Below the pieces are notes generated by a model that worked only from the letters and a program-made list of their open reading frames with translations, ran no database searches and had not been told where the DNA came from. The translations under genes and the position numbers were made by a program. DNA of 32,000 nt. It comes from Trichlorobacter lovleyi SZ (GTDB lineage Bacteria; Desulfobacterota; Desulfuromonadia; Geobacterales; Pseudopelobacteraceae). Shown here in pieces: positions 3,001 through 28,750 of this stretch. The stretch lies in contig NC_010814.1 in the NCBI RefSeq assembly GCF_000020385.1, forward strand, positions 2,730,001 through 2,762,000, given 5' to 3'. Positions within the stretch are counted from its first letter, which is position 1, and each line of letters begins with the position of its first letter.

Positions 3001-3107
3001 AGATGGAGACCAACATCAAGGCCAAGGCCGACGGTAAAGTGGCTGAGGTCAAGTTCAAAGAAGGGGACAAGGTGGAGAAGGAAGATCTCGTGATTGTCAT
3101 GGGCTAG
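3..3107 (+). CDS. pyc: pyruvate carboxylase, 5'-truncated by the window edge (rest of the biotin carboxylase domain + carboxyltransferase + biotinyl domain)
   Basis: The frame is open from the window edge: QRALGDKVAGRK precedes the first listed start. ATP-grasp motifs are present (YPIIIKAAAGGGGRGMRV, EMNPRIQVEHTVTE), as is a carboxyltransferase region (PVHLHTHDTSS). The biotin attachment motif EAMKME lies at 2991-3008. Stop TAG at 3105-3107. Confidence 0.95.
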   Translation, partial: QRALGDKVAGRKAAMSAEVPVVPGTEDPIEKEEEALKFAKDSGYPIIIKAAAGGGGRGMRVARNKKELLEGLVAARSEAKAAFGNATVFLERYIENPKHIEVQVMGDNYGNLVHFFERDCSIQRRHQKVVEFAPSLCLTQQQREEICTAALKIAGQVKYRNAGTVEFLVDQEGSFYFIEMNPRIQVEHTVTEMITGRNLVQNQILVAQGYKLSDPEINIPSQSAIDMRGYAIQCRITTEDPSNNFAPDFGTLTTYRSAAGAGIRLDAGNAFTGAQITPHYDSLLVKVSSWGLNFKDAASIMHRALQEFRVRGVKTNIGFLENVITHSVFLNGKCDTSFIEKHPELLQFREKKDRASKVLSFLGDVIVNGSPGIVKPLKSADLIEAKVPEIDYTQPRPSGSRDLFMKLGAEGLSKWILEQKKLLITDTTMRDAHQSNLATRVRTHDLLKIAEPTSYLGADLFSLECWGGATFDVSMRFLREDPWQRLHKLSEAIPNILFQMLLRGSNAVGYTNYPDNVVQKFVEEAANSGVDIFRVFDSLNWTTGMQVAMEAVRKSGKICEAAICYTGDITDPKRDKYPLEYYVNMAKELEKMGAHILAIKDMAGLLKPLAAYKLVKALKENIGIPVHLHTHDTSSNGSAMLLKASEAGVDIVDAALSSLSGLTAQPNLNALVATLEGSERDPQVNAAGLQKLANYWETVRDYYAPFESGLKSGTAEVYHHEIPGGQYSNYKPQVAGLGLLERWDECKEMYHKVNMMFGDIVKVTPSSKVVGDMAMFLVKNNLQPEDVYTTKEDLAFPESVVGMFKGMLGQPYQGWPEELQKIILKGQQPITCRPGELLEPADFEEERVNLEEKLGHRIDDKSLISAILYPNVYPEFDKYRQEYSDTSVIPTPIFFYGLEPGQETSIEIEPGKTLIIKLNAIGKLHDDGTRTVYFELNGNNRSVVVRDQSVQNSDAFREKADKGNAGHVGAPMPGKVLKVNVKAGDEVKAGDVLMVTEAMKMETNIKAKADGKVAEVKFKEGDKVEKEDLVIVMG

Positions 3108-3134
3108 ACCATCCCTGTCAGGATACGCATCTAA

Positions 3135-3178
3135 CACGACAGCCTGCTCCGGTGATCCGGGGCAGGCTGTCGTGTTTC
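3135..3178 (+). terminator. rho-independent terminator of pyc
   Basis: A 13-bp perfect stem, cacgacagcctgc (3135-3147) pairing with gcaggctgtcgtg (3162-3174), is followed by a short T run. Confidence 0.7.
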
Positions 3179-3289
3179 CACTGGACAAGCTGCGGGAATT
3201 GGGCTAGAAACAGCCATTATAACAGCCTCATGGAAGAGAGCGATGCTGATCAGTCCACCAGACACCCAATACTCAACGTAAGAACCACC

Positions 3290-3322
3290 AAAACCCGCCA
3301 GAAATGGCGGGTTTTGCTTTTT
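3290..3322. terminator. second, orphan terminator-like hairpin (usable on either strand)
   Basis: Stem aaaacccgcc (3290-3299) pairs with ggcgggtttt (3306-3315) and is followed by gctttttt. No annotated ORF lies between the pyc terminator and this hairpin. Confidence 0.5.
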
Positions 3323-3595
3323 TAAAACTGTAAAGTTTTTTTACACATAATCACAAAACCGCAGCCCTTCGCAGTTCCGGAACTGGCAAATTTCTTTACA
3401 CCCTGTCCCTGACCAGCACGTCAAACAGGAAAAGCTTCAACAATGGCAAAATTCATCAGCTCACTGACAGCGTCAAGTAATCATACAGGCTACTTGTCAG
3501 CTCAAGCGACATCGCCCTGGCTGCCAGTGGCACCGTCAAACGGGTCATTACGTACACCCAGACACTGAATCTGACTGAATTGAAAGGTGGCTATC

Positions 3596-4297
3596 ATGAA
3601 GAAACTGCTCGTCTTAACAACTCTTGTTGTGCTGTTCTGCTCTGCATCGGAAATCCGGGCAGCGACGCTTTACTTTAAAAACGGCGATGAATTTGAGTAT
3701 CAACGCTATTGGGAAAGAAACGGTCGCATCCATGTTCAGATCAACAAAGAGTCTGAAGTCGATTTTGCCAAGGATGAACTCGATCTTATTAAGTCAAAAA
3801 TTGCAGTTAAACCAGCTAAAACGATACTGCATACTGCAGATAATATCCGCCCGCCATCAGCTTCTGACACGCTCCCCCATGGCTATCGAACGCCCACCAC
3901 TCAAACTAAATTCTCCACCCTCCAAGAGGAACTCAGCAGCATTTACGGTAATTTCTACACGGCTATGCGCTCAGGCAATTTCAATACCCTGTTGAAGTAT
4001 GTTACCGGTAAGCAACGAAAGACAACTGAAAAGCTGATTAATGCTCCAGAGTCACAAAAAACACTTTTCAGACAAATGATTACCAATCTCCCTGCGGATT
4101 ATACGGTAACCGGATTTTCAGCAGCACCTGGTGGGAAAAAGGCGACCCTTGTAACCAGAAGAAAGATGCTGACTGGGGTATATGACGTAAATGGCGTAAA
4201 GACTCACGAGGAAACCTCCTACATCAGCAACACTGTGGAATTTATCAAGCAAAACAATGAATGGAAAATTGCTTTGGCCCAGGATTCGTTACAATAG
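3596..4297 (+). CDS. hypothetical exported protein (signal peptide; possibly NTF2-like C-terminus)
   Basis: ATG at 3596 is preceded by gaaaggtgg. N-terminus MKKLLVLTTLVVLFCSASEIRAA is a typical Sec signal with an AxA-type cleavage site. The gene is visibly lower in GC than its flanks. No family was recognised. Confidence 0.65.
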   Translation: MKKLLVLTTLVVLFCSASEIRAATLYFKNGDEFEYQRYWERNGRIHVQINKESEVDFAKDELDLIKSKIAVKPAKTILHTADNIRPPSASDTLPHGYRTPTTQTKFSTLQEELSSIYGNFYTAMRSGNFNTLLKYVTGKQRKTTEKLINAPESQKTLFRQMITNLPADYTVTGFSAAPGGKKATLVTRRKMLTGVYDVNGVKTHEETSYISNTVEFIKQNNEWKIALAQDSLQ

Positions 4298-4418
4298 TCC
4301 CGTTCCTGAGAATTACACAAGTCTAACTGGCTTACAGCAATATTCAGTTTTCCGATAGCAACACTCCGACATTGTTGCAGTTTGTTTTGTACAGACAAAA
4401 CCATGAAAGGAATCACAC

Positions 4419-4925
4419 GTGAAGTGTCCTAATTGTGGCTACATCAGGAAACCAGACGACTTATGCCCAGAGTGGCAATGTCCTTCATGTCAAATGGCCT
4501 ATAACAAAATAGCGCAGCGCAACATTTATCCCGACGCGGCCCGTGAGACTATCCGTAGCAACCTCATTATCACAAGCAACAATCAACCAAGCATTTTGAA
4601 AGCAATAGTAATTGCAGTTCTAGTATGCTGTTTTTTATATATCGGCTACTCCATTGCAATAAATCCTTCATTTCTAAACAATCTTGCAATATCTACGCAG
4701 GATACCAGAGAACAGATTGAAAACAAGAAGGTTGAACTACAGGCTTATGAAGATGCTCTACAAAAAATTGAAGCTGATATTGCTAATGCAAGAGCAAACG
4801 TCGGCATCTGCCCTATAACTGGACAGCCAAATCAATTTAACCTGACACAAGATCCCAGACCGGAACTACAGTCAAAGATTGAAAAATTGAGGCAAGAGAT
4901 CAGGCATCTTGAAAACAAATCATGA
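4419..4925 (+). CDS. hypothetical zinc-ribbon / single-TM / coiled-coil protein
   Basis: GTG start follows gaaagga. Two CxxC pairs (CPNCGY ... CPSCQ) are followed by a hydrophobic helix (ILKAIVIAVLVCCFLYIGYSIAI) and a heptad-like C-terminus (ENKKVELQAYEDALQKIEADIANA). The gene is low in GC. Confidence 0.55.
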   Translation: MKCPNCGYIRKPDDLCPEWQCPSCQMAYNKIAQRNIYPDAARETIRSNLIITSNNQPSILKAIVIAVLVCCFLYIGYSIAINPSFLNNLAISTQDTREQIENKKVELQAYEDALQKIEADIANARANVGICPITGQPNQFNLTQDPRPELQSKIEKLRQEIRHLENKS

Positions 4926-4985
4926 CATCTCCCCCCAAAAGCACCTGACCCGAATAGAATAGTCATCACAACGACCTGCTGCTTA

Positions 4986-5032
4986 CACTACAAACGCCCT
5001 GCCCGGATAATCCGGACAGGGCGTTTGTAGTG
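4986..5032. terminator. bidirectional terminator hairpin between convergent genes
   Basis: A 16-bp perfect stem, cactacaaacgccctg (4986-5001) pairing with cagggcgtttgtagtg (5017-5032), lies between the stop at 4925 (+) and the stop at 5054 (-). Confidence 0.7.
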
Positions 5033-17589: not shown

Positions 17590-19032
17590 ATGAAAAGTAA
17601 ACAGGAAGATCACCTGAAGGAATGGCAGGGGCTGGAAGAGGCAGCAGAGCAGATACTGCCTCTGGTTGGCCAGCTCTACCGCGAACGGAACATCGTCTGC
17701 ACGGTCTATGGCCGTTCACTGGTACACAGCACCACCATCGACATCCTCAAGGCCCATCGCTTTGCCCGTCTGATCATTGATGAAGAACTTTCTGCACTTA
17801 AAACCCTGCCGATTGTCGAGGCGATCTGCCAGCTTGATCTGGCCCCGGCCCGGATCGATATCGGCAAGCTTGCCGTCGGTTTCGGTAATCAGCAGGCAAC
17901 CACCAGTATCAGCGACTACCTCCGGGGTGAACTGGCAAGCGTCAATACCGGACGCCACACTCTGCTGGATGAGCCGCAGGATATCGTCCTGTACGGCTTT
18001 GGCCGGATCGGCCGCCTGCTGGCCCGCCTGCTGGTTGAAAAATCCGGCAGTGGCGAAAAGCTGCGCCTGCGGGCAGCAGTGGTACGCAAAGGCAGTGCCG
18101 ATGATCTGCTCAAGCGGGCCAGCCTGCTGCGCCGCGACTCGATCCACGGCCAGTTCAGCGGCATCATCACCGTGGATGAGGAAGAAAACGCCATCATCGC
18201 CAACGGCAACATGATCCGGATCATCTACGCCGATGCCCCGGAAAATGTTGATTACAGCGCCTACGGCATCAACAACGCCATCCTGATCGACAACACCGGC
18301 AAATGGCGTGACCGTGAAGGACTGGGCCGCCACCTGCAGGCAAAAGGGATCAGCAAAGTAATCCTGACCGCACCGGGCAAGGGCGATATCCCCAACGTGG
18401 TGGCCGGGGTCAACAACGAACTGATCACCCCGGACGAGCAGATCTTCTCCGCTGCCAGCTGCACCACCAACGCCATTGTGCCGGTGCTGAAGGCGATCCA
18501 TGACCGTTTCACCATCCAGCACGGCCATGTGGAGACCTGTCACTCCTACACCAACGACCAGAACCTGATCGACAACTACCACAAAGGTTCACGCCGTGGC
18601 CGCAGTGCCCCGCTGAACATGGTTATTACCGAGACCGGTGCAGCCAAGGCCGTTGCCAAGGTGATCCCTGACCTGGCCGGCAAGCTGACCGGCAATGCCA
18701 TCCGGGTGCCGACCCCCAACGTCTCTCTGGCGATCCTGAACCTGGGACTTGGTCAGGAAACCACGGTCAAGGAACTGAACAGCTTCCTGCGGGATACCGC
18801 CCTCAACTCACCGCTGCAGAACCAGATTGATTATGTGGTGTCACCGGAAGTGGTCTCCAGCGACTTTGTCGGCTCACGCCATGCCGGTGTGGTTGATTCC
18901 CTGGCCACCATTGTCCAGGGTAACCGCTGCGTGCTGTATGTCTGGTACGATAACGAATTCGGCTACAGCTGTCAGGTGGTGCGGATGGTGCAGAAAATGG
19001 CGGGGATCGAACTGCCGTCACTCCCCAACTAA
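17590..19032 (+). CDS. gap: glyceraldehyde-3-phosphate dehydrogenase, long form (about 130-aa N-terminal extension)
   Basis: Rossmann motif IVLYGFGRIGRLLARLL begins near residue 132. Catalytic SCTTNA is present (AASCTTNAIVPVLKAI), and the C-terminal block WYDNEFGYS is typical of GAPDH. Confidence 0.9.
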   Translation: MKSKQEDHLKEWQGLEEAAEQILPLVGQLYRERNIVCTVYGRSLVHSTTIDILKAHRFARLIIDEELSALKTLPIVEAICQLDLAPARIDIGKLAVGFGNQQATTSISDYLRGELASVNTGRHTLLDEPQDIVLYGFGRIGRLLARLLVEKSGSGEKLRLRAAVVRKGSADDLLKRASLLRRDSIHGQFSGIITVDEEENAIIANGNMIRIIYADAPENVDYSAYGINNAILIDNTGKWRDREGLGRHLQAKGISKVILTAPGKGDIPNVVAGVNNELITPDEQIFSAASCTTNAIVPVLKAIHDRFTIQHGHVETCHSYTNDQNLIDNYHKGSRRGRSAPLNMVITETGAAKAVAKVIPDLAGKLTGNAIRVPTPNVSLAILNLGLGQETTVKELNSFLRDTALNSPLQNQIDYVVSPEVVSSDFVGSRHAGVVDSLATIVQGNRCVLYVWYDNEFGYSCQVVRMVQKMAGIELPSLPN

Positions 19033-19057
19033 GCCAGCCTCCCGGCCCCCGCTGCAA

Positions 19058-19102
19058 TGAAGCCTCATCAGCTCTAATGTCTGATGAGGCTTCACTTTTA
19101 TT
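19058..19102 (+). terminator. rho-independent terminator of gap
   Basis: A 14-bp perfect stem, tgaagcctcatcag (19058-19071) pairing with ctgatgaggcttca (19081-19094), is followed by cttttatt. Confidence 0.75.
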
Positions 19103-19253
19103 CACCTATCTGAAACTTTAAATTGCAGGCCCTGCTGCAACCCTTATTGCATACGGCGGCACTATCCTGCCGCGCCTTTTAAGTAGCAACGGGGTCTTCC
19201 AACGTGCCTGGATTAAAACGACAACATACGCAACCTGGAAGCCTGCCCCCACA

Positions 19254-19315
19254 GGTTCCATGGACCTTATCCGTGGTAGAAATGCTATTAAAACCGGGTA
19301 GTATCCTGTTTTTTT
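19254..19315. repeat. repeat family A, copy 1 (vsr-5'-fragment-like segment + terminator-like hairpin); the most diverged copy
   Basis: ccatggaccttatccgtggtagaaatgctattaaaaccgggtagtatcctgttttttt aligns with copies 2 and 3. It is directly tandem to copy 2. Confidence 0.7.
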
Positions 19316-19320
19316 ACTGA

Positions 19321-19382
19321 TGGAACATGGGCCTGATCCGTGGTAGAAATGCTGAGAAAACCGGCGAGTGTCCCGCTTTTTT
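19321..19382. repeat. repeat family A, copy 2
   Basis: tggaacatgggcctgatccgtggtagaaatgctgagaaaaccggcgagtgtcccgctttttt matches copy 3 at most positions when aligned by eye. Confidence 0.75.
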
Positions 19383-19561
19383 GCCCCGCCACTGACCATC
19401 CCGGCCTCCCATGAAACAGAGATCATGATGGAGATCCCGAAGCATGACAGCCATCTGGAGGCGCTGGAACCGGAGTCGATACGAGAGACGATTTCAGAAG
19501 AACTGGTTACTGCCACTGACAGACAAAAAAATAACCTTTAAGTTATAAATAGCCTTGCATT

Positions 19562-19584
19562 AAATAATATTTGTATTATTATTT
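19562..19584. promoter_or_regulatory. AT-rich inverted repeat; candidate operator upstream of the XRE-family gene
   Basis: AAATAATA (19562-19569), a 7-nt spacer, then TATTATTT (19577-19584), about 30 nt upstream of ATG 19615. XRE-type antitoxin-like regulators commonly autoregulate through such palindromes. Confidence 0.35.
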
Positions 19585-19614
19585 ATACAAATCCAGATAA
19601 CAAAGAGGTTATGT

Positions 19615-20076
19615 ATGCAAGCCAGACATAAACTAATCATACGCCAGCAACTTGATAAAACCCTTGCCGGCCTAAAAGCTACAAACACCAAGGTTCCGGT
19701 AAAGGGGTGGATACGGGCAATTCGTGAGGCACTGGGTATGTCCGGCAGGCAGCTGGCCCAACGGTTGAAGGTCTCACAGCCCCGCATTCCCCGGCTTGAG
19801 CAGGATGAACTGACCGGATCAGTCACAATAAAGACCATGCAGCAGGTGGCTGAGGCTTTGGACTGTGCCTTTGTCTATGCCCTGGTGCCCCGTACCTCTT
19901 TGGAGAACACCCTGAGAGGCCAGGCTCGACTGGTTGCACAAGATCGTATAGAGCGGGTTGCTCATAGCATGCTGCTGGAGGCGCAGTCATTATCTGCTGA
20001 AGAACAGCAGAAATCGCTTGAGGCAACCATTAATGAACTGGTTCGTGAAATGCCAAAAGAGCTGTGGGACAAGTAA
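19615..20076 (+). CDS. XRE-family HTH protein of the 'mobile mystery protein A' type
   Basis: RBS agagg lies 7 nt upstream. HTH region GWIRAIREALGMSGRQLAQRLKVSQPRIPRLEQDE ... VYALVP. It is paired with a downstream Fic gene, as described for TIGR02612/TIGR02613 (recalled, not searched). Confidence 0.8.
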   Translation: MQARHKLIIRQQLDKTLAGLKATNTKVPVKGWIRAIREALGMSGRQLAQRLKVSQPRIPRLEQDELTGSVTIKTMQQVAEALDCAFVYALVPRTSLENTLRGQARLVAQDRIERVAHSMLLEAQSLSAEEQQKSLEATINELVREMPKELWDK

Positions 20077-20078
20077 GC

Positions 20079-20663
20079 ATGAGATTTGATTATCCAGAAG
20101 GCGCAACGCCGCTTGATCCTGATGAGGCGCAAGGATTACTGCTCTCCCACATAACCAGCCGCAATGAGCTTGATCGATGGGAACAGGAAAATATTGCCGA
20201 GGCAGAAGCATGGGCTTTCCGGCGCACACCTCGTGACATCCTGACTGAAGGTTTTATAAAGCGTCTGCATAAGCGGATGTTTGGCACGGTCTGGCGCTGG
20301 GCAGGCAAAAAACGGGACACCGGCAAGAACATCGGAGTGCCAGCCTGGCAGATAGATACAGAGTTGCATAACCTCTGTGCTGATTGTGCAACCTGGATTG
20401 AGCACAACGCCTACCCGGCAGATGAGATAGCAGCACGTTTTCATCACCGTTTAACAGCGATCCATCCCTTCCCCAACGGTAATGGACGACATGCCCGCCT
20501 GATGACGGATATTGTACTGGTGCATCTGTTAGGGCAACCACGCTTTAGCTGGGGTAGCGGTAATCTGGTTAATGCCGGGGAGTGCCGCAAGCAGTATATT
20601 GAAGCTCTGCGTGCTGCTGACAGTCTGGATTATGGGCCGCTGTTGGTGTTTGTAAGATCGTAA
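20079..20663 (+). CDS. Fic-family protein of the 'mobile mystery protein B' type
   Basis: Fic core motif HPFPNGNGRHARL is present. Starts 3 nt after the stop of the upstream HTH gene (ATG 20079; the listed ORF uses GTG 20064). Confidence 0.85.
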   Translation: MRFDYPEGATPLDPDEAQGLLLSHITSRNELDRWEQENIAEAEAWAFRRTPRDILTEGFIKRLHKRMFGTVWRWAGKKRDTGKNIGVPAWQIDTELHNLCADCATWIEHNAYPADEIAARFHHRLTAIHPFPNGNGRHARLMTDIVLVHLLGQPRFSWGSGNLVNAGECRKQYIEALRAADSLDYGPLLVFVRS

Positions 20664-20711
20664 GCTGAAGATGCTGGATAAAGGCGGGTATTGGGAGGTT
20701 GTTAAGCCGGA

Positions 20712-20840
20712 ATGACTGACCATCTCGACAAAGCCAAACGCTCATGGAACATGAGCCGGATTCGTGATGGAGATGCTGCGAAAACCGGGGAGTGTCCCGT
20801 TTTTTGCTTAGGCCACACTGCACGTTGTTTTTTTATGTAA
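20712..20840 (+). pseudogene. vsr: 5' remnant of a very-short-patch-repair endonuclease (vsr) gene, truncated after about 18-25 codons
   Basis: MTDHLDKAKRSWNMSRIR... parallels the E. coli Vsr N-terminus MADVHDKATRSKNMRAI (recalled). After about codon 20 the similarity is lost, and the frame runs through a hairpin and T run to a stop at 20838-20840. Confidence 0.6.
20745..20805. repeat. repeat family A, copy 3 (embedded in the vsr remnant)
   Basis: tggaacatgagccggattcgtgatggagatgctgcgaaaaccggggagtgtcccgtttttt. Only this copy retains the upstream vsr start codon context. Confidence 0.75.
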
Positions 20841-20972
20841 TCATAGGGCGAGGACAGCTTTAACTGTCCCCCTAAGAGTTTTGTTTTCAGAGCATCCAAG
20901 ATATGTTTTGACTAAAAATCAACATTTAAGCAATATATACTTTACTTAAAATGCTTTTTTAGGACATTTAAC

Positions 20973-22436
20973 ATGATCGCGACATCATCAGAGCTGATTA
21001 CCGTATTGCGTCAGTATAACCCCTGGTGGCGCAACGCTTCGGCTTCAGATCTACCAAGCTGGAGACGGCGAGCCTTCCACGGCATCCTTACCTGGATGCA
21101 GGAGCCACCAGCGCCACGGGCACTCTTGCTTTCCGGCGCACGGCAGGTTGGCAAGACCACGCTTTTTCTACAGGTAATCCAGGAGCTGATTGACAACGGC
21201 GTTCCCCCCACCAAGATACTCTATGCTACTTTTGACCACCCCTTGCTCAAGTTGTTGGGGCTGGATGGCCTGATCAAACTATGGCGTGAATTTGAGCCGG
21301 AAAGTGACGGCATAGAATACCTTTTTCTTGATGAAATCCAGACGGTGCGCGATTGGCAGACCTGGCTGAAGTTACAGGTTGATTTTGAGAAAAAACGCCG
21401 GATAGCCGTAACCGGTTCAGCCACCCCGCTGGTGACAGAAGGGCAGGAATCCGGTGTCGGTCGCTGGCATACCCTTCGTTTATCCACCCTTTCGTTCTTT
21501 GAGTATCTGCAACTGAAGCAGGTAAATATCCCACCGTTGCCGGAGATAAACTCACTTGCCCGGCTCTTTGACTGGACACCGGCACAATTTGCCACCGTCT
21601 CAGCAGACGCTGCACCGCTCGTCGCACATTTTCATGAATACCTGCTGCGGGGCGGTTTTCCGCAAAGTGTGGTAATGGGCAGCGTAACCGCTGCACAGAA
21701 ACTGTTGCGAGAAGACATTGTCGATAAGGTACTGAAACGGGATATGACGGCGCTTTTCGGGGTGCGGCATATTCTGGAGCTTGAACAGGTCTTTCTCTAC
21801 CTCTGCCTGCATGGCGGTGGCATACTGGATATGCAGACCTTATGCGGCGATCTGGAACTCAAAAAACCGACTGTGAACAACTTTATCAACCTGTTGGAGG
21901 CAACCCACCTGATCTACAAATTGCCACCGTTCGGTTATGGCAAAGAGATCCTGCGTGCCCGGTACAAAGTGTATCTGGCTGATGCTGCCATTTCACCGTC
22001 GGTGTTGCTTAAGGGAAATTCACTTCTGGAAGACCCGATAGCACTGGGGATTGCCGTTGAAACCGCCTTCTTTAAGCATGTTTTTGCCCGATACTACTCG
22101 CGCAGTGCAGGTTTTTCCTACTGGCGCGGCAAAAGCGACCGTGAAGTAGACATTGTTGCCGAGGTTGAAGGGCGGTTGACACCGTTTGAGGTAAAATACC
22201 GTTCACAGCATACCGGCGCCGGTGAATTGAAGGGACTGACCCAGTTTTGTGAAACCCGCCAGGCGCCACGCGGCTATGTTATTACCAGAGAAATGCAGGA
22301 CTTCTCCATCCTCACATTGGAAAAGGAAGTGAATACCAGGACCGGCAAAGCGCCAATCCGTATAGCCAAGATACCAGCGCCGCTGGCCTGTTACTGGCTG
22401 GGCAAGACTGAACTGGATGAACTGCCGGGAGACTAG
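20973..22436 (+). CDS. AAA+ ATPase of the AAA_14/DUF4143 type
   Basis: N-terminal YNPWW signature, Walker A LLSGARQVGKTTL, Walker B YLFLDEIQ. The C-terminal half resembles the DUF4143 region (REVDIVAEVEGRLTPFEVKY). Confidence 0.8.
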   Translation: MIATSSELITVLRQYNPWWRNASASDLPSWRRRAFHGILTWMQEPPAPRALLLSGARQVGKTTLFLQVIQELIDNGVPPTKILYATFDHPLLKLLGLDGLIKLWREFEPESDGIEYLFLDEIQTVRDWQTWLKLQVDFEKKRRIAVTGSATPLVTEGQESGVGRWHTLRLSTLSFFEYLQLKQVNIPPLPEINSLARLFDWTPAQFATVSADAAPLVAHFHEYLLRGGFPQSVVMGSVTAAQKLLREDIVDKVLKRDMTALFGVRHILELEQVFLYLCLHGGGILDMQTLCGDLELKKPTVNNFINLLEATHLIYKLPPFGYGKEILRARYKVYLADAAISPSVLLKGNSLLEDPIALGIAVETAFFKHVFARYYSRSAGFSYWRGKSDREVDIVAEVEGRLTPFEVKYRSQHTGAGELKGLTQFCETRQAPRGYVITREMQDFSILTLEKEVNTRTGKAPIRIAKIPAPLACYWLGKTELDELPGD

Positions 22437-22463
22437 CAAAACCGTAACGCCGGGGAACAGATT

Positions 22464-22520
22464 GGGGTAGGCTTGACTTATTGACTTTCAGGCAAATAGC
22501 AAAAAGGCAAGCCTGACCCC
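22464..22520. repeat. 12/13-bp inverted repeat with a 32-nt loop at a compositional junction
   Basis: ggggtaggcttg (22464-22475) pairs with caagcctgacccc (22508-22520) with one bulged base. It sits between the AAA ATPase stop and the in-frame TAG (22522) that opens the truncated ATPase ORF. Confidence 0.55.
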
Positions 22521-22542
22521 ATAGACTCTATGCCACCAACCA

Positions 22543-23382
22543 TTGCCAGATGAACCGCTGGTCGATGGGCTAGGGGCAGTTCGACTTCAGTTTGAGCGCG
22601 ACCGACTCGACGGAGAACTTAAGGAGGCTGACGAGTTGCTTGGAGTCCTCCAACGTGATGAACAGCGTTTGATGGCAGAGATCACAACGGCTGAAGAAAG
22701 ACTCCGCATGCTTGAGAATGAGCTAGCTCCGGCCCGTCAAGCAGTATCGGCGTTGATCCAGGAGGAGGTCAGTTCTATTGACATGGGTATAGGCGTATTG
22801 AATGAAAGACAGCGCCATCTGAGGCGTATCTCAGCAGCCTTCGAGCTCGGCCAGCAGCTAACTGATCGCATTTCAGACATAGAGCGTGAGATCGAGCCGC
22901 TTCAGGATGCAATCGACGAGGCAGTACGTTCGACGGACTTTGATGCGGCCGCGTCGATGCTTGAAGATGGCATGAATGCCTATTTGTCAAAGATCAACAT
23001 TCTCCGCCCGGGGGTATGGCGCCATAGTCCAATCAAGATTGATGTTTCCCGTTTTCGCTTCACTATGAGGGTTGGTGCTCGGCGGTGGCATGCTGCACTC
23101 GGAGGGACTGATTCACTTTATTTCTTAATGGCGTACCACTATGGGTTGCTCACTCTCACGAGTAAAAGTGGCTGTCATTATCCTGGGCTGTCAATCATAG
23201 ATGTCCCAGGTGAGTTTTCTGGAGAAGCGGTCGAAGACAAGGAAAACTTTATAGTGCAGCCGTTTGTCGAACTGCTGAATCGAGACGAGTACAAGGGATC
23301 GCAGCTCATCATTACCGGAGCCTCGTTTACTGGGCTCGAGGGGGCGCATCGGCTGCTCCAGACCCATGTCTATGTAGCGTAG
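22543..23382 (+). pseudogene. C-terminal half of a coiled-coil SMC/ABC-type ATPase (DUF3732-like); the N-terminal Walker A half is absent
   Basis: A long coiled coil is followed by a signature-like LGGTDSLYF and a Walker-B-like PGLSIIDVPGEF ... QLIITG. The frame is closed by TAG at 22522. The only start is an RBS-less TTG. No Walker A is present anywhere in the ORF. Confidence 0.5.
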
Positions 23383-23434
23383 TTCGCTACATATCCTGAT
23401 AAGAAGGCAAAATCTTAAGTTGAGGAGATTTCAT

Positions 23435-24394
23435 TTGTCGCAGCGGCTTCTTCCAATTGATGTTATTCCAACTGAGCTTTGGCAAAAACAGTCAGAACTA
23501 TTGAGGCTTCCGGATCAGCTCAAGACTGCTTACTGTTCAAAGATCGAATCACTTGGCCTGATTGACATTGCCACTCTCCACGTTGACGAAGATGGTCCGG
23601 CCGGAGGAATGTCAGATCAAGAAACAAAAAAGCACTTTGCTCGCCGGTTCCCTGCTTCTTGCGGGCGTGTTCAGCTTGCAGTTTTGGATCCGAAAGACGA
23701 GTTATCCAGCGCTTCAGATCTTATAATTAATTCATTTGCTGGAGGTAAAGTTGCGCTATTGGACGTTCCGTGCGGTGCTGGTGCTGCTTTCGCATCTGTG
23801 CTTTCAACAATTGCCTCGCTACGACGGGCATCGTGTATTCCTTGCAACCCACTTGAGGTCAATATTATTGGTGGAGACCTATCTCCTTTTGCACTAGGTT
23901 TAGCGTGTGATCTTCATAATTCTTTGAAAGATAGCCTTGCTGAAGTATCAATCACATCAAAATTCACGGCTGTCGATTGGAATGCCAGAGATAAGCAGAA
24001 AACTGTTGAGCTATTAAGAACTTGGGAGCAGGCATGTGTAGGTGTCAGGGCTAGACTTGCGGTTACCGCCAATTTCTCGGACTTTTTAGGGCATGGTAGC
24101 AACTTCAAAGATTGTAAACTACATCTTGAGGATATCTTCCGTTGGGCAAATACTCCTGGTGCGCGCTTTGTCTGGTTCGAACCTCAAACAAAGTCGGCAA
24201 CGACCATGTTTGAGCGACTTTTGGAGCTTATTGCCGCTATGAAGCTCCGAATCCTTAGTCACTTTCCCAATCCCGGTCCGAACGGTTCACCTAGACTATC
24301 ACAGGCGCGCTTAGAGCATCCCTTTGATTCAGATCGTAATTTTCCTGTTCGGCTCTCAGTGATGCTCCTGAGAGATAACGGAGACATTCTTTGA
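23435..24394 (+). CDS. SAM-methyltransferase-like protein (N6-adenine MTase-like fold with a degenerate catalytic motif)
   Basis: Motif I-like VALLDVPCGAGAAF (23750-23791), a motif II/III-like NIIGGDLSPFALGLA, and a motif IV position reading TANFSDF (N at 24071) instead of NPPF/Y. Start is uncertain: TTG 23435 follows gaggag by 7 nt, the listed ORF uses TTG 23420, and the first in-frame ATG is codon 64. Confidence 0.6.
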   Translation: MSQRLLPIDVIPTELWQKQSELLRLPDQLKTAYCSKIESLGLIDIATLHVDEDGPAGGMSDQETKKHFARRFPASCGRVQLAVLDPKDELSSASDLIINSFAGGKVALLDVPCGAGAAFASVLSTIASLRRASCIPCNPLEVNIIGGDLSPFALGLACDLHNSLKDSLAEVSITSKFTAVDWNARDKQKTVELLRTWEQACVGVRARLAVTANFSDFLGHGSNFKDCKLHLEDIFRWANTPGARFVWFEPQTKSATTMFERLLELIAAMKLRILSHFPNPGPNGSPRLSQARLEHPFDSDRNFPVRLSVMLLRDNGDIL

Positions 24395-26127
24395 GGGTTC
24401 AGAATCTCGCAGCGCGCGCCGCAAATGATTACCGAGGAAGGGACATAGTGACTTACCTCGCACTTCGCTACTATCTTCTAGCCCATAGTGCAAGAAATGA
24501 TCGTTGGGCTCGCGAAATTGCAACAAGCATCACATTACACAGAAACTCAGTGCCATACCGAGAGTTCGAAGTTTATAAGGGCTTGCAGGAAAGGTCTTCA
24601 GGGCACGAACCAGTAATAGATTATCGAAAAGTTCACTATCCTGCGCCAACTGAGGCATTGGCTGAGGCGGCATTACTATCTGAGTTAGCACGCGTAGGAG
24701 GGCCTTTCTCCCGTCACGAATGCGTGTTCAGCAATGTTCTATCAGCGCATGGAACGGCAGGAAGCGTCGAACCTTACTTTACTTGGTGGGCAAAGAGGCA
24801 GAAGGCTATCGAAGCTTCCTGCAGGCAGAACCTTTCTGCGACAGTCGTTTATCTTGACCTTCAGAAGTTTTATCCCAGCGTCTCAACTGAACTTGCGAGC
24901 GCAACATGGAAAGGTGCTGCTGCATCGGTCCAACTAGGTCAATACTGGGTAACTCTTGGGGATAAGCTTCTCGCTGATTACAGCACAATTCTAGGTGGGC
25001 GTGGCGGCTTGTTGTCGGGGCCGGTGTTCGGACATGTGGTCGGAAATATCGTTCTTCGGGGGTTGGATGACACGCTTCACTCCCATTATCCGGGCAGATG
25101 TTTTCGATATGTCGACGATATTGCACTTGTTATCCCATTTGCTGACATGAAATCTGCCAAGACGTTGCTTAAAGAAGCTCTTCCTGAAGGACTCCATATT
25201 AATGAAGCTAAGACGCTCGAAATGGAAGCGAAAGAGTGGATAAGTATTACATCATCCTTCGAATCGGAGATGGACACACTTTCGTGGGGTCGTTTCGTCT
25301 CGGGCCTAAAATTTTTCTTGTTTGCGCATAAGGGTAGTCTTGAGCTATTGCAACCGGCCGCTTTGGCTGAGGGGTTTCGGCTACCTTTGCGTGATAACAA
25401 AACCGCGGCACAAGAGCAGACCACAGTGCAGCGGTTTATTCAGCGTATACGAGCACCGTGGTTTGATCGAGAAAAGGCACCGACAAAGGTCTCGGACGTC
25501 TTGCGTCTTGCACGCGAGGCCCGCGAGAAGATGACGCGAGCGTTCAACGAGGCATCGGAGGCAGTATCTGGTATACCTAGCAACCAAAAGATGCGTCGGA
25601 AATTGCAGATACAAAAGCTACGATATGCTGCTAAGCGCTTACTTTTCCTTGCACCACAGGACCAACTTGGGCATCTCGCTGGGATGATTGAGGATGTTCC
25701 AGAAATATCTGAGCTGCACGCCATTTTTGTTGCATTGTCGTCGCGAGACGTTACAAATTTGCTTGCTTACTCAAGTTCAGTTGCACAAGCAGCAGCGCAG
25801 GTCCTCTTGGCTGATGGTGGAAAATTTCGTTGTTCGTCAACTAAATGGATTAATGCACAAGAAGATGCGTGGTCAGTACTTCGAATGAATGGCGTACCAC
25901 TAATTGACGCGGGACTTGAACAAATACAAGATTCTCCTATGGTCCGCTTCGCTGCCCGTCGCCCATATAATCCTCACGAACGACAACAACTTACTGACTA
26001 TTATCGCGAACTCCACGCAGTGTGTGATATTCGCCAAGTGGATCATCAGGAACTATTAGCTACGGCTATTAATGGAGCAGACCCAATTACGTTTGACGCT
26101 TTACATCTGCTCGGACTGTCGTCGTAA
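24391..26127 (+). CDS. reverse transcriptase, stand-alone defence/Abi-like type (RT domain about residues 75-290 + about 290-aa helical C-terminal domain)
   Basis: RT motifs in order: RKVHYPAPTEALAEAALL (motif 1), VVYLDLQKFYPSV (motif A, Asp at 24856-24858), GGLLSGPVFGHVVGNIVL (motif B), FRYVDDIALV (YVDD at 25108-25119), GLHINEAKT (motif D). TTG start overlaps the upstream stop (TTGA). No maturase/endonuclease or nitrilase-type domain was recognised. Confidence 0.85.
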   Translation: MRVQNLAARAANDYRGRDIVTYLALRYYLLAHSARNDRWAREIATSITLHRNSVPYREFEVYKGLQERSSGHEPVIDYRKVHYPAPTEALAEAALLSELARVGGPFSRHECVFSNVLSAHGTAGSVEPYFTWWAKRQKAIEASCRQNLSATVVYLDLQKFYPSVSTELASATWKGAAASVQLGQYWVTLGDKLLADYSTILGGRGGLLSGPVFGHVVGNIVLRGLDDTLHSHYPGRCFRYVDDIALVIPFADMKSAKTLLKEALPEGLHINEAKTLEMEAKEWISITSSFESEMDTLSWGRFVSGLKFFLFAHKGSLELLQPAALAEGFRLPLRDNKTAAQEQTTVQRFIQRIRAPWFDREKAPTKVSDVLRLAREAREKMTRAFNEASEAVSGIPSNQKMRRKLQIQKLRYAAKRLLFLAPQDQLGHLAGMIEDVPEISELHAIFVALSSRDVTNLLAYSSSVAQAAAQVLLADGGKFRCSSTKWINAQEDAWSVLRMNGVPLIDAGLEQIQDSPMVRFAARRPYNPHERQQLTDYYRELHAVCDIRQVDHQELLATAINGADPITFDALHLLGLSS

Positions 26128-26129
26128 GA

Positions 26130-26160
26130 CGTAAAAACCAGGGACATCCCGGTTTTTACG
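26130..26160. terminator. hairpin immediately after the RT stop (possible terminator or module boundary)
   Basis: cgtaaaaacc(a)ggg - acat - cccggtttttacg: a 13-bp stem with one bulge. The T run lies inside the stem, so this is not a canonical intrinsic terminator. Confidence 0.4.
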
Positions 26161-26260
26161 CAAAAATATGCTGTCATTTCCTCCCGTGATAACCACTTCT
26201 TACTGATATGTTGACTTGTAATCCAGGTCATGTGACCGTATCCTACGGTGTTGCGGGGCC

Positions 26261-26339
26261 GCTCGAAGCGAAATCATGATCAAAGAAGATACTGTGACAA
26301 GGTTGCTTGATAAAGAAACAGAGAGCGGGGAGCTTACCC
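26261..26339. repeat. repeat family B, copy 1 (duplicate of the 5' end of the 27371 gene)
   Basis: The core, 26272-26339, matches 27367-27434 with 5 mismatches in 68 nt; 11 further upstream nt match more weakly. It encodes MIKEDTVTRLLDKETESGELT and continues to a TGA that overlaps the RhuM ATG. Confidence 0.8.
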
Positions 26340-26361
26340 CCGAATTTTGTGAGGGTAGAGC

Positions 26362-27353
26362 ATGAACCAAGACGATAACGCGATTGTCCTCTATCAGGCT
26401 CCTGACGGGTCATCTTCCCTTCAGGTCCAACTCGACCATGACACCGTCTGGCTGACACAGGCTCAAGTTGCTGAACTTTTTGATGTAAATGTTCCTGCGG
26501 TATCAAAGCATATCAGGAATATTCTGGGCAGCGGAGAGCTGGATGCAGCCGCAACTGTTTCCAAAATGGAAAGAGTTCAGCTTGAAGGTGGGCGGAAAGT
26601 CAAGAGAAGCCAGGTCTTATACAGTCTGGATATGATCATTTCTATTGGTTATCGTGTCAATTCTGCAAAGGCTACCAGGTTTCGTATCTGGGCGACCAAG
26701 GTTCTGCGCGACCATATCGTCACAGGGTACACGCTCAACGAGCAGCGGTTGCGGGAGGAGAGCGCCAAGCTTCAGGCGATGCAGCAGACAGTGGCGTTGC
26801 TGGCGCGAACCCTGACCAATCAGGAGCTGGTAAGCGATACCGGCAGGGACGTGCTGCGTGTCATCGACGATTACGCCTATGCTCTGGCAACCCTTGACCG
26901 CTACGACCACGGGACGCTGGCCATCGAAGGAACTACCGCCAGGCACTGTACGTCATCAGTTACGACGAGGGGATTCGCATCGTCAACGCCATGAAGGGGG
27001 ATTTCAATGGTCTGTTCGGTCTGGAAAAGGATCAGGGATTCAAGAGCGCACTCGGTGCCATCTACCAGACCTTCGGCGGTGAGGAACTCTATCCGAGCGT
27101 GGAGGAAAAGGGAGCGAACCTCCTGTACTTTGTCGTCAAGAACCATGCCTTCAGCGATGGCAACAAGCGGATAGCCGCTGCCCTGTTCATCTACTTCCTG
27201 GGCATGAACGGCATTCTCTACCATGCCGATTGTTCAAAGAGACTGGCGGACAACGCCCTGGTGGCGCTGACCCTGCTCATCGCCGAGAGCCGTCCGGAAG
27301 AGAAAGAGACTATCGTCAAGGTGATCGTTAACCTTATCAACCGGAATAACTGA
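26362..27353 (+). pseudogene. RhuM-family + Fic/Doc-domain gene interrupted by a frameshift (or a sequencing error)
   Basis: The N-terminal ORF (26362-26994) carries RhuM blocks LDMIISIGYRVNSAKATRFRIWATKVL. The Doc/Fic motif HAFSDGNKRIAAALFIYFL lies in a second ORF (26991-27353) in a different frame. That second frame is open from 26898, placing the shift at about 26925-26945. Confidence 0.75.
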
Positions 27354-27355
27354 CT

Positions 27356-27434
27356 GCTCGCGCCTGAATCATGATCAAAGAAGATACGGTGACAAGGCTG
27401 CTTGATAAGGAATCCGAGAGCGGGGAGCTTACCC
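27356..27434. repeat. repeat family B, copy 2 (true 5' end of the 27371 gene)
   Basis: See copy 1. This copy begins 3 nt after the RhuM-Fic stop codon. Confidence 0.8.
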
Positions 27435-28750
27435 GAAAGGCCGTTGCGCTTTTGGCCGAGGCTGCCGCAGTGCAGGGAACGCTGCATCTGCCCGGCGTGC
27501 GCGATGCGTATCGCTGGCGGCTGGAGCAGGTTGTGCTGCTGGCCGGACAGGCGCTGGAAGGTGCGGGGGAGAGCCGCGAGGCGGCGCTGCTGCATTGGGT
27601 GCTGGTGCAGGCTTGCGCGGCTCGGGCAGAGGATGCGCGCTACGGCGCCGGGCAGCTTTCTCGCGGTGCTCAGCGGGCGCCCACGCTGGAGGATTGCGAC
27701 GACGGCTGGCAGCGGGTAGAGCAGATCGCCAGTACTGCCGAAGAGGCGGCATTGGCGGCCGCAGGTTTTGCCCAGCGACTGAATACGGACAAAGCGAGAG
27801 CGATGGCCCTTAGAGCTGAAGTTGCTGCAAAGTCTGCCAGAAAAACCGTCCAGGAACGCAACCGCGCCTATACCTTCCATGCCGATCCCGGCTTTTCTTT
27901 TGGCGAAGGCTGGTACCTGGCTGCGGCGGCACTGTTTGCCGGCCTTTCCATCCAGATCAGACCCGGGGCTGCCCACGAAATTCAGGCCAGACGATTTCTT
28001 TTAGATGCCGGGCTGGAGGGAGCCCTTCGCCCCTATCGGCCTCGACCGGCCAGCCCCAAGCATCTGACACATATCATTGCCGAGGCTTTTCGAGCTGACG
28101 CGCAACAGGCACAGGGCACCCTGCGCACCGCTTTTCTGGGTGACGAATCAGCGTCGGCTCCCTTACGAGCATGGATCTATGACAAAGTGGGTGGGACGCC
28201 GGAACAGAAGGTGCTACTGTGGGTCCGAACAGGTGACCACCATGTCCAGCGCAATACCTGTTTTGATGAGTTGCGTCAGCTTTCCGAACTGGTAGTGAAT
28301 ACAGGGCTCACACCCATCTTTTTCGGCGATAATGTTCCGCGAGAGCTTGTTCCGCAAGGGGCGGTTAACCTGACCCTGTGCTGGAAAGAGCCGCTCTTCC
28401 AGGGACCGGAGATGCGCCGGGCACAGCTTCACCTGTTTGAAGAGTTAAGATGCCGACACGGCCTGATGGGCCAGATTGGCGTGACCACCGCCGGTATGGA
28501 CGGACCGGCGCTTATGGGATTGCCCACCCTGTACCTTACCCGGGAACACAATGTCCGGCTGGGCAAGTGGGTGGGAGCCGTTCCGGGATATCAGGAGGTT
28601 GTGCGGGAACCGGGCTATTTCGCAATCATCCGTACCACCCTGCATCAGTGGCAGCAGTGCCCCCCCAGAGGCGAGGCAATTACCATTGAGGTCCGCAAGG
28701 TGGTGACGTTTAAGCCAAGCAGTGTGCTTAAGGACGCTATCAACAAATGA
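27371..28750 (+). CDS. hypothetical protein; the C-terminal half resembles a GT-B / glycosyltransferase-family-9-like Rossmann domain
   Basis: 459-aa high-GC ORF. The C-terminal pattern KVLLWVRTGDHHVQRN..ELRQLSELVVNTGLTPIFFGDN ... GQIGVTTAGMDGPALMGLPTLYL is reminiscent of the heptosyltransferase donor-binding half. This is a pattern resemblance only. Confidence 0.55.
   Translation: MIKEDTVTRLLDKESESGELTRKAVALLAEAAAVQGTLHLPGVRDAYRWRLEQVVLLAGQALEGAGESREAALLHWVLVQACAARAEDARYGAGQLSRGAQRAPTLEDCDDGWQRVEQIASTAEEAALAAAGFAQRLNTDKARAMALRAEVAAKSARKTVQERNRAYTFHADPGFSFGEGWYLAAAALFAGLSIQIRPGAAHEIQARRFLLDAGLEGALRPYRPRPASPKHLTHIIAEAFRADAQQAQGTLRTAFLGDESASAPLRAWIYDKVGGTPEQKVLLWVRTGDHHVQRNTCFDELRQLSELVVNTGLTPIFFGDNVPRELVPQGAVNLTLCWKEPLFQGPEMRRAQLHLFEELRCRHGLMGQIGVTTAGMDGPALMGLPTLYLTREHNVRLGKWVGAVPGYQEVVREPGYFAIIRTTLHQWQQCPPRGEAITIEVRKVVTFKPSSVLKDAINK

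Follow-up and report, generated by a model that had tools for sequence, protein, structure and literature searches.

The window analysed here is a 32,000-nucleotide (nt) stretch of the Trichlorobacter lovleyi SZ genome (NC_010814.1, positions 2,730,001 to 2,762,000 of the forward strand). In its list of open reading frames (ORFs), two overlapping plus-strand genes occupy 23435–26127, a methyltransferase-like (MT-like) gene followed by a reverse transcriptase (RT) gene. Judged from its profile match, the RT almost certainly belongs to UG36, a group of the UG/Abi RTs. The pairing is catalogued and experimentally uncharacterised, and the window holds an intact new instance of it. The coordinates of the genes and their motifs are collected in Table 1.

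The RT matched almost the whole length of the PADLOC profile RT_UG36, model PDLC03775 (positions 3–555 of 557; E = 2.7e-166, 552.7 bits). The next-best PADLOC profile was UG20 with an E value of 3e-11, and the further runner-ups included the Class 2 profiles Drt3a and UG17 at 1e-7 to 1e-9. UG35 was repeatedly a top runner-up for the RT domain, and the RT scored about 500 bits lower on it than on UG36. The Pfam model RVT_1 gave 18.3 bits, which is below its cut-off of 29.6, and the scores for the NCBIfam Drt2, Drt3a and retron models were far below their cut-offs. A group II intron RT was rejected, because no maturase (X) domain was found in the protein by Pfam and no group II intron RNA was matched by Rfam in 19000–28000.

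UG36 was described by Mestre et al. 2022 (NAR, PMC9226505) as an 'unclassified' UG/Abi group associated with methylase-domain genes, which recalls UG25 and UG35, whose methylase is fused N-terminally. The methylase-gene clusters are given there as 169/2186. The locus in the window shares with that description the full-length profile match, the separate methylase-domain gene, the lack of any other recognisable domain and the defence-island location, and no difference was observed in anything tested. In our literature search, UG36, UG25 and UG35 appeared in no paper after Mestre et al. 2022, and no DRT number was found for UG36; the DRT numbering in the literature reaches DRT10 (UG17) and DRT11 (UG5). 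The present analysis adds to the short computational description of UG36 the 4-nt coupling of the two genes, their natural fusions, and the non-canonical motifs and fold of the MT-like protein. It also adds the little room left for a non-coding RNA (ncRNA), the Class 1-like architecture of the RT and the recombination of the MT domain.

The UG36 family is rare, with 41 clusters at 90% identity in a word-indexed search of 5.8 billion proteins. A scan of one genome per species gave 80 loci, and 72 of them carried a UG36-like RT. These 72 loci are from Verrucomicrobiota, Gamma-, Beta- and Epsilonproteobacteria, Acidobacteriota, Planctomycetota, Cyanobacteria, Bacteroidota, the Candidate Phyla Radiation (CPR) and other phyla. 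A homologue of the MT-like protein was located directly upstream of the RT on the same strand in about 66 of the 72 (phmmer E values of 1e-19 to 1e-64), and a 4-nt overlap between the two genes is the dominant arrangement in related loci. Where this neighbour was missing, the RT was mostly at a contig edge (L020, L041, L059) or broken (L048). L072 is an exception, in which a full-length UG36 RT is preceded solely by a 143-amino acid (aa) overlapping ORF. Consistently, the reciprocal test found a UG36-type RT just downstream of four out of four independently chosen MT-like genes (538–582 aa, split into 271 + 315 aa in L087). Natural MT-RT fusions were also found, with lengths of 902 aa (L033), 780 aa (P0227) and 663 aa (P0173). 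No third conserved gene was detected, and the commonest neighbour family was present in only 7 of the 72 loci. Because no other gene family recurs beside the pair, the functional unit appears to consist of two genes, and it is very probable that the MT-like gene and the RT gene work as one unit. The coupling and the natural fusions suggest that the two proteins form a complex. The pair was absent from 50,697 phage records, and one distant copy only was found among 72,556 plasmids.

Two TTG codons can serve as the start of the MT-like gene. TTG 23435 is probably the right one rather than TTG 23420, because it is preceded by a Shine-Dalgarno-like GAGGAG with a 7-nt spacer, and because the gene callers picked the 319-aa form (P0042, 100% identical to the window protein). 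The residue numbers of the MT-like protein follow the 324-aa frame throughout. The TTG start of the RT has a GGAG 6 nt upstream, and the conservation of the family begins at residue 4 in the alignment of homologues. The intergenic spacer upstream of the pair is about 50 nt. The pair has a GC content of 0.47–0.50, and the flanks with housekeeping genes one of about 0.60. The housekeeping genes, which encode pyruvate carboxylase, Mrp/Nuo-type antiporter subunits, GAPDH and a P-type ATPase, lie outside about 19.1–28.8 kb, and therefore the pair sits in a small chromosomal islet.

Table 1. Features of the MT-RT pair in the window (nucleotide positions of the window; residue numbers in the respective protein).
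Feature	Position (nt)	Strand	Residues	Remarks
MT-like gene (UG36 partner)	23435..24394	+	319 aa	TTG start at 23435
Longest MT-like ORF	23420..24394	+	324 aa	TTG start at 23420
MT-like motif I, D115-V-P-C-G119-A-G121-A122	23762..23785	+	115–122	glycine-rich SAM-binding loop after strand β1
MT-like post-β4 loop, N217-F-S-D-F221	24068..24082	+	217–221	at the position of catalytic motif IV; follows strand 211–217
Recombinant tract (approximate ends)	23690..24485	+		MT-like Rossmann domain and about the first 30 RT codons; 67–86% identical to the related locus L081
Stop/start overlap, TTGA	24391..24394	+		4 nt, read from sequence; translational coupling of MT-like and RT genes
UG36 RT gene	24391..26127	+	578 aa	TTG start
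RT N-terminal extension			~1–130	AlphaFold2 model
RT motif RKVHYPAP			79–86	
RT fingers/palm			~130–295	AlphaFold2 model
RT motif YLDLQKFYPSV			154–164	motif A region
RT motif LLSGPVFGHVVGN			207–219	
RT motif C, Y240-V-D-D243	25108..25119	+	240–243	YVDD, catalytic aspartates
RT motif HINEAKT			269–275	motif D region
RT C-terminal domain			~296–578	all helical, AlphaFold2 model

The MT-like protein was modelled by AlphaFold2 (AF2) with a predicted local distance difference test score (pLDDT) of 89.9 and a predicted template modelling (TM) score (pTM) of 0.90. The model has the seven-stranded topology of class I methyltransferases (MTases), with strands at residues 109–115, 145–153, 178–186, 211–217, 248–255, 294–299 and 307–318. 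Motif I is part of LLDVPCGAGAAF (aa 112–123) and falls between the strand 109–115 and the helix 122–136, and the acidic residue D153 of motif II ends strand β2. Motif I after β1 and an acidic residue at the end of β2 are the classic elements of class I MTases that contact S-adenosylmethionine (SAM). Among 56 MT-like homologues, G119 and G121 of motif I are invariant, and D115, P117 and A122 are at least 90% conserved; both D153 and the DxPCGxGA motif are conserved. The loop after β4 is non-canonical. In the alignments of 56 and 94 homologues, its NFSDF sequence fits a family consensus of (A)NFSGF(L), in contrast to the (D/N/S)PP(Y/F/W) of amino-MTases. NPPY/F is needed by amino-methyltransferases only, and many genuine class I MTases do not have NPPY-type motifs. 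Invariant or near-invariant in the same two alignments are G62, G63, H72, F77, S80, R83, Q85, D115, P117, G119, G121, A122, R135, P141, P144, D153, S155, W187, F219, E254 and P255. Many invariant residues are carried by a conserved N-terminal extension of about 105 aa (GPxGG...HFxxRFxxSxxRxQ).

The top Foldseek matches of the MT-like protein in the PDB are almost all SAM-dependent MTases, including MrsA, DOT1, SABATH enzymes, GNMT, FtsJ, Dnmt2 and BCDIN3D, with E values of about 1e-4 and TM scores of at most 0.40. None of the Pfam and NCBIfam MTase models passed its threshold. The best was Methyltransf_31 (E = 0.0033), which was seen in 3 of the 56 members, and a PDB profile search with the family matched the motif I region only (E = 0.08). 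Assignment to a known MTase family was therefore rejected, since Pfam per member, the PDB profile search and Foldseek gave just a generic class I similarity. An exhaustive search with the MT-like profile returned 437 representative clusters, of which 268 reached E ≤1e-30, and nearly all are 300–330 aa long. The ratio of nonsynonymous to synonymous substitution rates (dN/dS) against the two closest relatives is 0.13–0.16, and it ranges from 0.10 to 0.16 when the divergent tract described below is included. Such values around 0.1 mean that the MT-like gene is under purifying selection. Taken together, the alignments and the model indicate that the MT-like protein is a distinct, selected family of predicted SAM-binding Rossmann proteins. 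That it is a catalytically active MTase and not purely a SAM sensor has about even odds.

All 66 RT sequences share D156 of motif A, R239-Y-V-D-D243, K274 of motif D, K63 and R79. In the AF2 model of the RT (pLDDT 90.6), a fingers/palm core follows an N-terminal helical/β extension, and the last 280 residues or so form a domain made entirely of helices. For both genes of the pair, the low dN/dS, the invariant catalytic residues of the RT, the conserved MT motifs and the two confident models speak for function. Over the full length of the RT, Foldseek ranked AbiA, DRT6, AbiK, DRT4/UG15 and Abi-P2 as the best matches, and the modelled architecture resembles these Class 1 UG/Abi polymerases. The Class 1 UG/Abi enzymes studied so far carry out untemplated DNA synthesis, several of them primed from a tyrosine of variable position, while the Class 2 enzymes copy a dedicated ncRNA (PMC13174585, PMC12783706, PMC13213688). 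Outside the canonical motifs of the UG36 RTs, the tyrosines Y22 (64/66), Y115 (64/66), Y237 (65/66) and Y129 (57/66) are widely conserved. Y129, the candidate that is similar to Tyr125 of DRT4, was examined as the priming residue, and its conservation was limited to those 57 sequences. The RT in the window has N115 (24733–24735) and C237 (25099–25101) where 64 and 65 of the 66 RTs have tyrosine, and its nearest relatives share both replacements. Position 237 is just before RYVDD, and position 115 follows S114. These two replacements are relevant if either tyrosine primes in other members of the family.

The initial annotation of this locus, which was made from the DNA letters, had described two genes with a TTGA overlap, one for an intact RT of the UG/Abi (DRT) kind, other than a group II intron, retron or diversity-generating retroelement (DGR) RT, and one for a methyltransferase-like protein to which the RT is coupled. 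All of this is borne out (PADLOC, NCBIfam and Foldseek for the RT), and every RT and MT motif that it quoted is where it was placed. The profile search, structure prediction and neighbourhood analysis it had proposed gave the end-to-end UG36 match, two confident models that were compared by Foldseek, and the co-conservation of the RT homologues with the MT-like gene. Its view of the pair as a candidate defence module also stands. In contrast, some of its descriptions have to be corrected. The RT is not an orphan, since a partner gene is known for UG36. The methyltransferase is not 'degenerate', because NFSDF is the family consensus, dN/dS is low and the class I fold is confident. The pairing was thought to be of no named type, but the RT is UG36 and the association is published (PMC9226505), so 'uncharacterised' is the part that stands. 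Placement of the RT in a characterised type with a known partner had been named as an outcome that would overturn the proposal, and half of it applies: UG36 is a named group with a known partner, but it is experimentally uncharacterised. The two other such outcomes did not occur, as the pair is strongly co-localised across genomes and the MT-like gene is not a decayed fragment of a restriction-modification (R-M) methylase.

No support for an ncRNA in the flanks of the pair was obtained from Rfam, flank blastn, boundary mapping or hairpin enrichment. The DNA homology with the two closest relatives starts at window position 22528 for L081 (91% identity overall) and at 23080 for L083 (79%; the L083 contig begins there). 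With both of them it ends at 26126–26129, within 2 nt of the RT stop codon, though both contigs continue. All-against-all blastn found no shared flank sequence among about 55 loci, and the Rfam scan gave no meaningful hit. The median flanks of the loci are 78 nt upstream and 169 nt downstream, and in at least six loci the genes on either side, of 182–979 aa, are no more than 75 nt away from the pair. At 26129–26161 of the window, starting 2 nt past the RT stop codon, a 13-bp stem forms a strong hairpin (−17.4 kcal/mol) with no run of T behind it. Neither L081 nor L083 has this hairpin, and a survey of 67 loci showed no enrichment of hairpins downstream; it probably represents a local terminator or a junction rather than a conserved part of the module. 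The 234-nt downstream spacer of the window folds somewhat better than its shuffled versions (z = −2.3). Since no flank is conserved, the homology ends at the stop codon and some loci are very tight, a Class 2-type RNA beside the operon is unlikely.

The sliding identity between the window and L081 revealed a recombinant tract in the module. The LmuB remnant, the spacer and MT codons 1–85 are 94–98% identical, and these codons have 99% aa identity. The identity falls to 67–77% over 23786–24385, which covers the whole Rossmann domain, and it is 85–86% in the two adjoining 100-nt windows, one of them spanning the beginning (100 nt) of the RT gene. The rest of the RT gene is back to 92–98%. In the divergent tract (MT codons 86–319), dS is 1.5, which is saturated, dN/dS is 0.10, and all motifs are kept. 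The pattern of the aligned sequences indicates that recombination exchanged this tract with that of a divergent but functional allele, in a single event.

The neighbours of the pair in many genomes are genes of defence. At loci other than that of the window, the pair was found right behind type I R-M operons, and an Eco57I-like MTase/SNF2, UvrD, Schlafen-AlbA2, Mrr, toxin-antitoxin genes, Thoeris-like genes and an intact Lamassu were also observed. In several genomes (L087 1–10896; L036, L037, L051, L065), the MT-RT pair begins 1–25 nt after hsdS or hsdR of a type I R-M operon, and the pair of L087 has Thoeris-like TIR/SIR2/STALD genes behind it. UvrD is near the pair in only about 4 of the 72 loci. 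In the window, the islet contains an HTH-Fic pair, an AAA_14/DUF4143 ATPase gene (PDC-S01), a Lamassu remnant and a RhuM-Fic segment. The initial annotation had reported a lower-GC block with Fic, RhuM-Fic, an AAA ATPase and a vsr remnant; the GC contrast agrees with it and the first three are confirmed by Pfam, while the vsr remnant was not located in the window. The module is intact, and its surroundings amount to a small defence islet of the chromosome. Window 20017–25603 recurs with 100% identity in L082, and therefore this part of the window has also been assembled in the JGI metagenome 3300050186.

The plus-strand ORF just upstream of the pair (22543–23382, 279 aa) matches only positions 364–578 of 643 of the PADLOC LmuB profile. 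In L081, whose RT is 96% identical, the MT-RT pair is preceded by intact genes for LmuA (a Cap4 nuclease), LmuC and a 637-aa LmuB (L081 80–3731), and the homology with the window begins inside this lmuB. The ORF is a 5'-truncated remnant of the 3' part of a Lamassu lmuB and not part of the module; a complete Lamassu, with full LmuB, LmuA and LmuC, was not found upstream of the pair in the window. The upstream Lamassu genes are replaced in the window by the HTH-Fic and AAA_14/DUF4143 genes. As a third component of the module this ORF was rejected, because no homologue was found beside any of 72 other UG36 loci. AAA_14/DUF4143, Fic and RhuM were likewise rejected as partners, since they do not recur; RhuM and Fic1 had one hit each, kilobases from the RT. 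An imperfect inverted repeat, GGGGTAGGCTTG...CAAGCCTGACCCC, lies at about 22464–22530, right at the lmuB breakpoint.

Several further features of the islet were observed. At its left edge, an HTH_3 gene (153 aa) and a Fic/DOC gene (199 aa) at 19615–20663 overlap by 13 nt and look like a toxin-antitoxin-like pair. A 65-nt direct repeat is present in three copies with 75–85% identity (19250–19314, 19317–19381 and 20741–20805), upstream of the HTH-Fic pair and between the Fic and the AAA_14/DUF4143 genes. These repeats may be a REP-like or regulatory element separating the cassettes of the islet, and no attC-like core was recognised in them. Downstream of the pair, a 79-nt repeat is found at 26261–26339 and again, 1095 nt further on, at 27356–27434 (87% identity), and its two copies exactly enclose the RhuM/Fic segment. 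ORF 27371–28750 has its start and about its first 20 codons within the second of them. Because of this, the RhuM-Fic segment looks like an insertion with duplication of the 5' end of that ORF. The ORF for the RhuM N-terminus (26362–26994, 210 aa) and that for the Fic domain (26991–27353, 120 aa) share 4 nt and are read in different frames, and they add up to the length of an ordinary member of the RhuM family (about 340 aa, as L055 8931–9959); they are probably one frameshifted gene. Outside the islet, a second low-GC patch (0.42–0.48) was seen at window 3000–5000, between the pyruvate carboxylase and DEAD-box helicase genes, and its ORFs 3587–4297 and 4419–4925 have no Pfam matches.

An anti-phage role of the pair is likely from where its genes are found. 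The reading that we favour as a whole, at odds somewhat above even, is that UG36 is a two-gene defence module in which untemplated, protein-primed DNA synthesis is combined with a SAM-using subunit. The MT-like and RT proteins would form a complex. By analogy with AbiK, Abi-P2, AbiA, DRT4 and Drt3b, the RT would make DNA without a dedicated ncRNA template, most likely in an untemplated, protein-primed mode; that the synthesis is independent of an ncRNA is slightly favoured. Phage infection would let the DNA product accumulate or act, which would stop the propagation of the phage. The MT-like subunit would use SAM, either to methylate the nascent DNA, a nucleotide or the priming site, or to gate the activity of the RT.

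Several observations weigh against this reading. The case for defence is made from gene neighbourhoods, that is, by guilt by association, and our literature search found no experimental paper on any UG36 system. No sigma-70-like promoter was recognised on the plus strand upstream of the pair in the window, and its expression in this genome may depend on read-through from the upstream genes. The superpositions of the RT model are loose (TM 0.36–0.42, root-mean-square deviation above 11 Å), and so are the matches (TM 0.36–0.42) behind the comparison of its all-helical C-terminal domain (aa 296–578) with an alphaRep domain. Mestre et al. (PMC9226505) had no evidence of an alphaRep domain in UG36. 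Foldseek also aligned most of the RT with DRT9, a Class 2 enzyme (about 547 columns). No tyrosine outside the canonical motifs is invariant among the 66 RTs, and therefore no priming residue can be named. An RNA template could also lie inside the coding region, or come from the phage or from the operon mRNA. For the MT-like protein, the searches described above found no close structural or sequence relative among the characterised MTases.

The rival explanations concern the role of the MT-like subunit, the template of the RT and the biological role of the pair. In one of them, the MT-like subunit binds SAM without catalysing a reaction and, as a sensor or 'guard', holds the RT inactive; depletion of SAM by a phage SAM lyase, or binding of another phage factor, then frees the RT. 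The initial annotation had suggested such a binding or sensor role. Phage SAM lyases are made to escape R-M or BREX. Conserved SAM motifs I and II together with a post-β4 loop that has no canonical catalytic motif fit such a sensor, and so do the repeated position of the pair right behind SAM-dependent type I R-M operons and Eco57I-like enzymes and the swap of the Rossmann domain between close relatives whose RTs are still 96% identical, a pattern typical of recognition modules. However, many genuine class I MTases have no NPPY-type motif, and about 20 invariant or near-invariant residues (G62, G63, H72, R83, Q85, R135, S155, E254, P255 and others) exceed what SAM binding needs. The swapped tract is under strong purifying rather than diversifying selection, and the R-M adjacency is seen in just about 5–10 of more than 70 loci. 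We consider the sensor explanation unlikely. Its most specific form, in which the subunit guards SAM-dependent restriction by its SAM occupancy, so that loss of SAM would leave an apo-sensor that frees the RT for toxic untemplated protein-primed DNA synthesis, is clearly less probable. It would explain the conserved SAM pocket with a non-canonical loop, the placement behind hsdR/hsdS and the Rossmann-domain swap. To our knowledge, such metabolite-guard logic has not been described for any RT-based system.

The RT could instead be Class 2-like and copy an ncRNA, as DRT2, DRT9, DRT10 and Drt3a do, from a template in or near the operon that is too divergent to detect. The runner-up profiles Drt3a and UG17 and the long DRT9 alignment are in line with this, the median flanks leave room for a small RNA in many loci, and the spacer after the window RT is somewhat structured. 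These points are countered by the end of the L081 and L083 homology 2 nt after the RT stop codon, the hairpin that is specific to the window in a family with no enrichment of downstream hairpins, the lack of conserved flank sequence or Rfam matches, and the six or more loci with at most 75 nt on each side between substantial genes, which makes a copied ncRNA rather improbable, somewhat more so than the sensor. It is also possible that the pair is not defensive and is a housekeeping or regulatory RT-MTase, or a selfish element gathering in variable islands. Such a role would fit the lack of experimental papers on UG36, the non-defence neighbours at some loci (L084, L085) and the way in which the defence role was predicted by Mestre et al., by manual locus inspection and not by statistical enrichment or experiment (PMC9226505). 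However, the family is rare and patchy over many phyla, the pair sits in low-GC islets and has defence neighbours in many loci, and it has no integrase, transposase or intron RNA features, no phage copies and one distant plasmid copy. In addition, all characterised UG/Abi relatives are antiviral, and a non-defensive role is given a low probability. The idea that an orphan RT lies by chance next to the decaying fragment of an R-M methylase has just the non-canonical motif IV on its side. It is refuted by the pairing kept in most loci, usually with the 4-nt overlap, by the natural fusions and by the purifying selection, and the MT-like protein has no Pfam N6_Mtase-type match; its probability is negligible.

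The two-gene defence module that we favour can be compared with the known systems. The MT-like protein and the N-terminal domain of UG35 are homologues (E = 2.7e-9 to 4e-8), and the order of MT and then RT is the same. UG35 and UG25 are Class 1 groups in which the MT is fused to the RT, whereas the two parts of UG36 are normally separate overlapping genes, and the partners of UG35 (a UvrD-like helicase) and UG25 (DUF1848) are not conserved with UG36. With AbiK, Abi-P2, AbiA, DRT4 (UG15), DRT6 (UG12) and Drt3b, the UG36 RT shares the RT core and a helical C-terminal domain of about 280 aa, and for these polymerases, as here, there is no evidence of a dedicated ncRNA. The sequence similarity to them is confined to the RT core, with TM scores of at most 0.42, and they do not have a SAM-binding partner, unlike UG36. 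The Class 2 DRTs (DRT2, DRT9, DRT10 and Drt3a) and the retrons are RT-based defence systems with a similar RT core, but they need a structured ncRNA encoded beside the RT, and none is conserved with UG36. With class I SAM-MTases, the UG36 partner shares the β1–β7 topology, the glycine-rich motif I after β1 and the acidic D153 that ends β2. It differs from them by the (A)NFSGF loop and by the N-terminal extension of about 105 aa, which has no known counterpart.

The window thus provides a further instance of the catalogued UG36 group and not a new kind of system. It is a compact module of about 2.7 kb with defined boundaries and start codons, the 72 loci point to targets for mutation, and the comparative set implies that no ncRNA needs to be cloned with the pair. 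Every DRT studied since 2024 writes DNA in a new way, such as de novo genes, poly-dA, random single-stranded DNA or protein-templated repeats. A polymerase obligatorily coupled to a SAM-binding enzyme would add to these either a new chemistry, such as a DNA product that is methylated or carries another modification, or a new trigger logic, such as the sensing of SAM.

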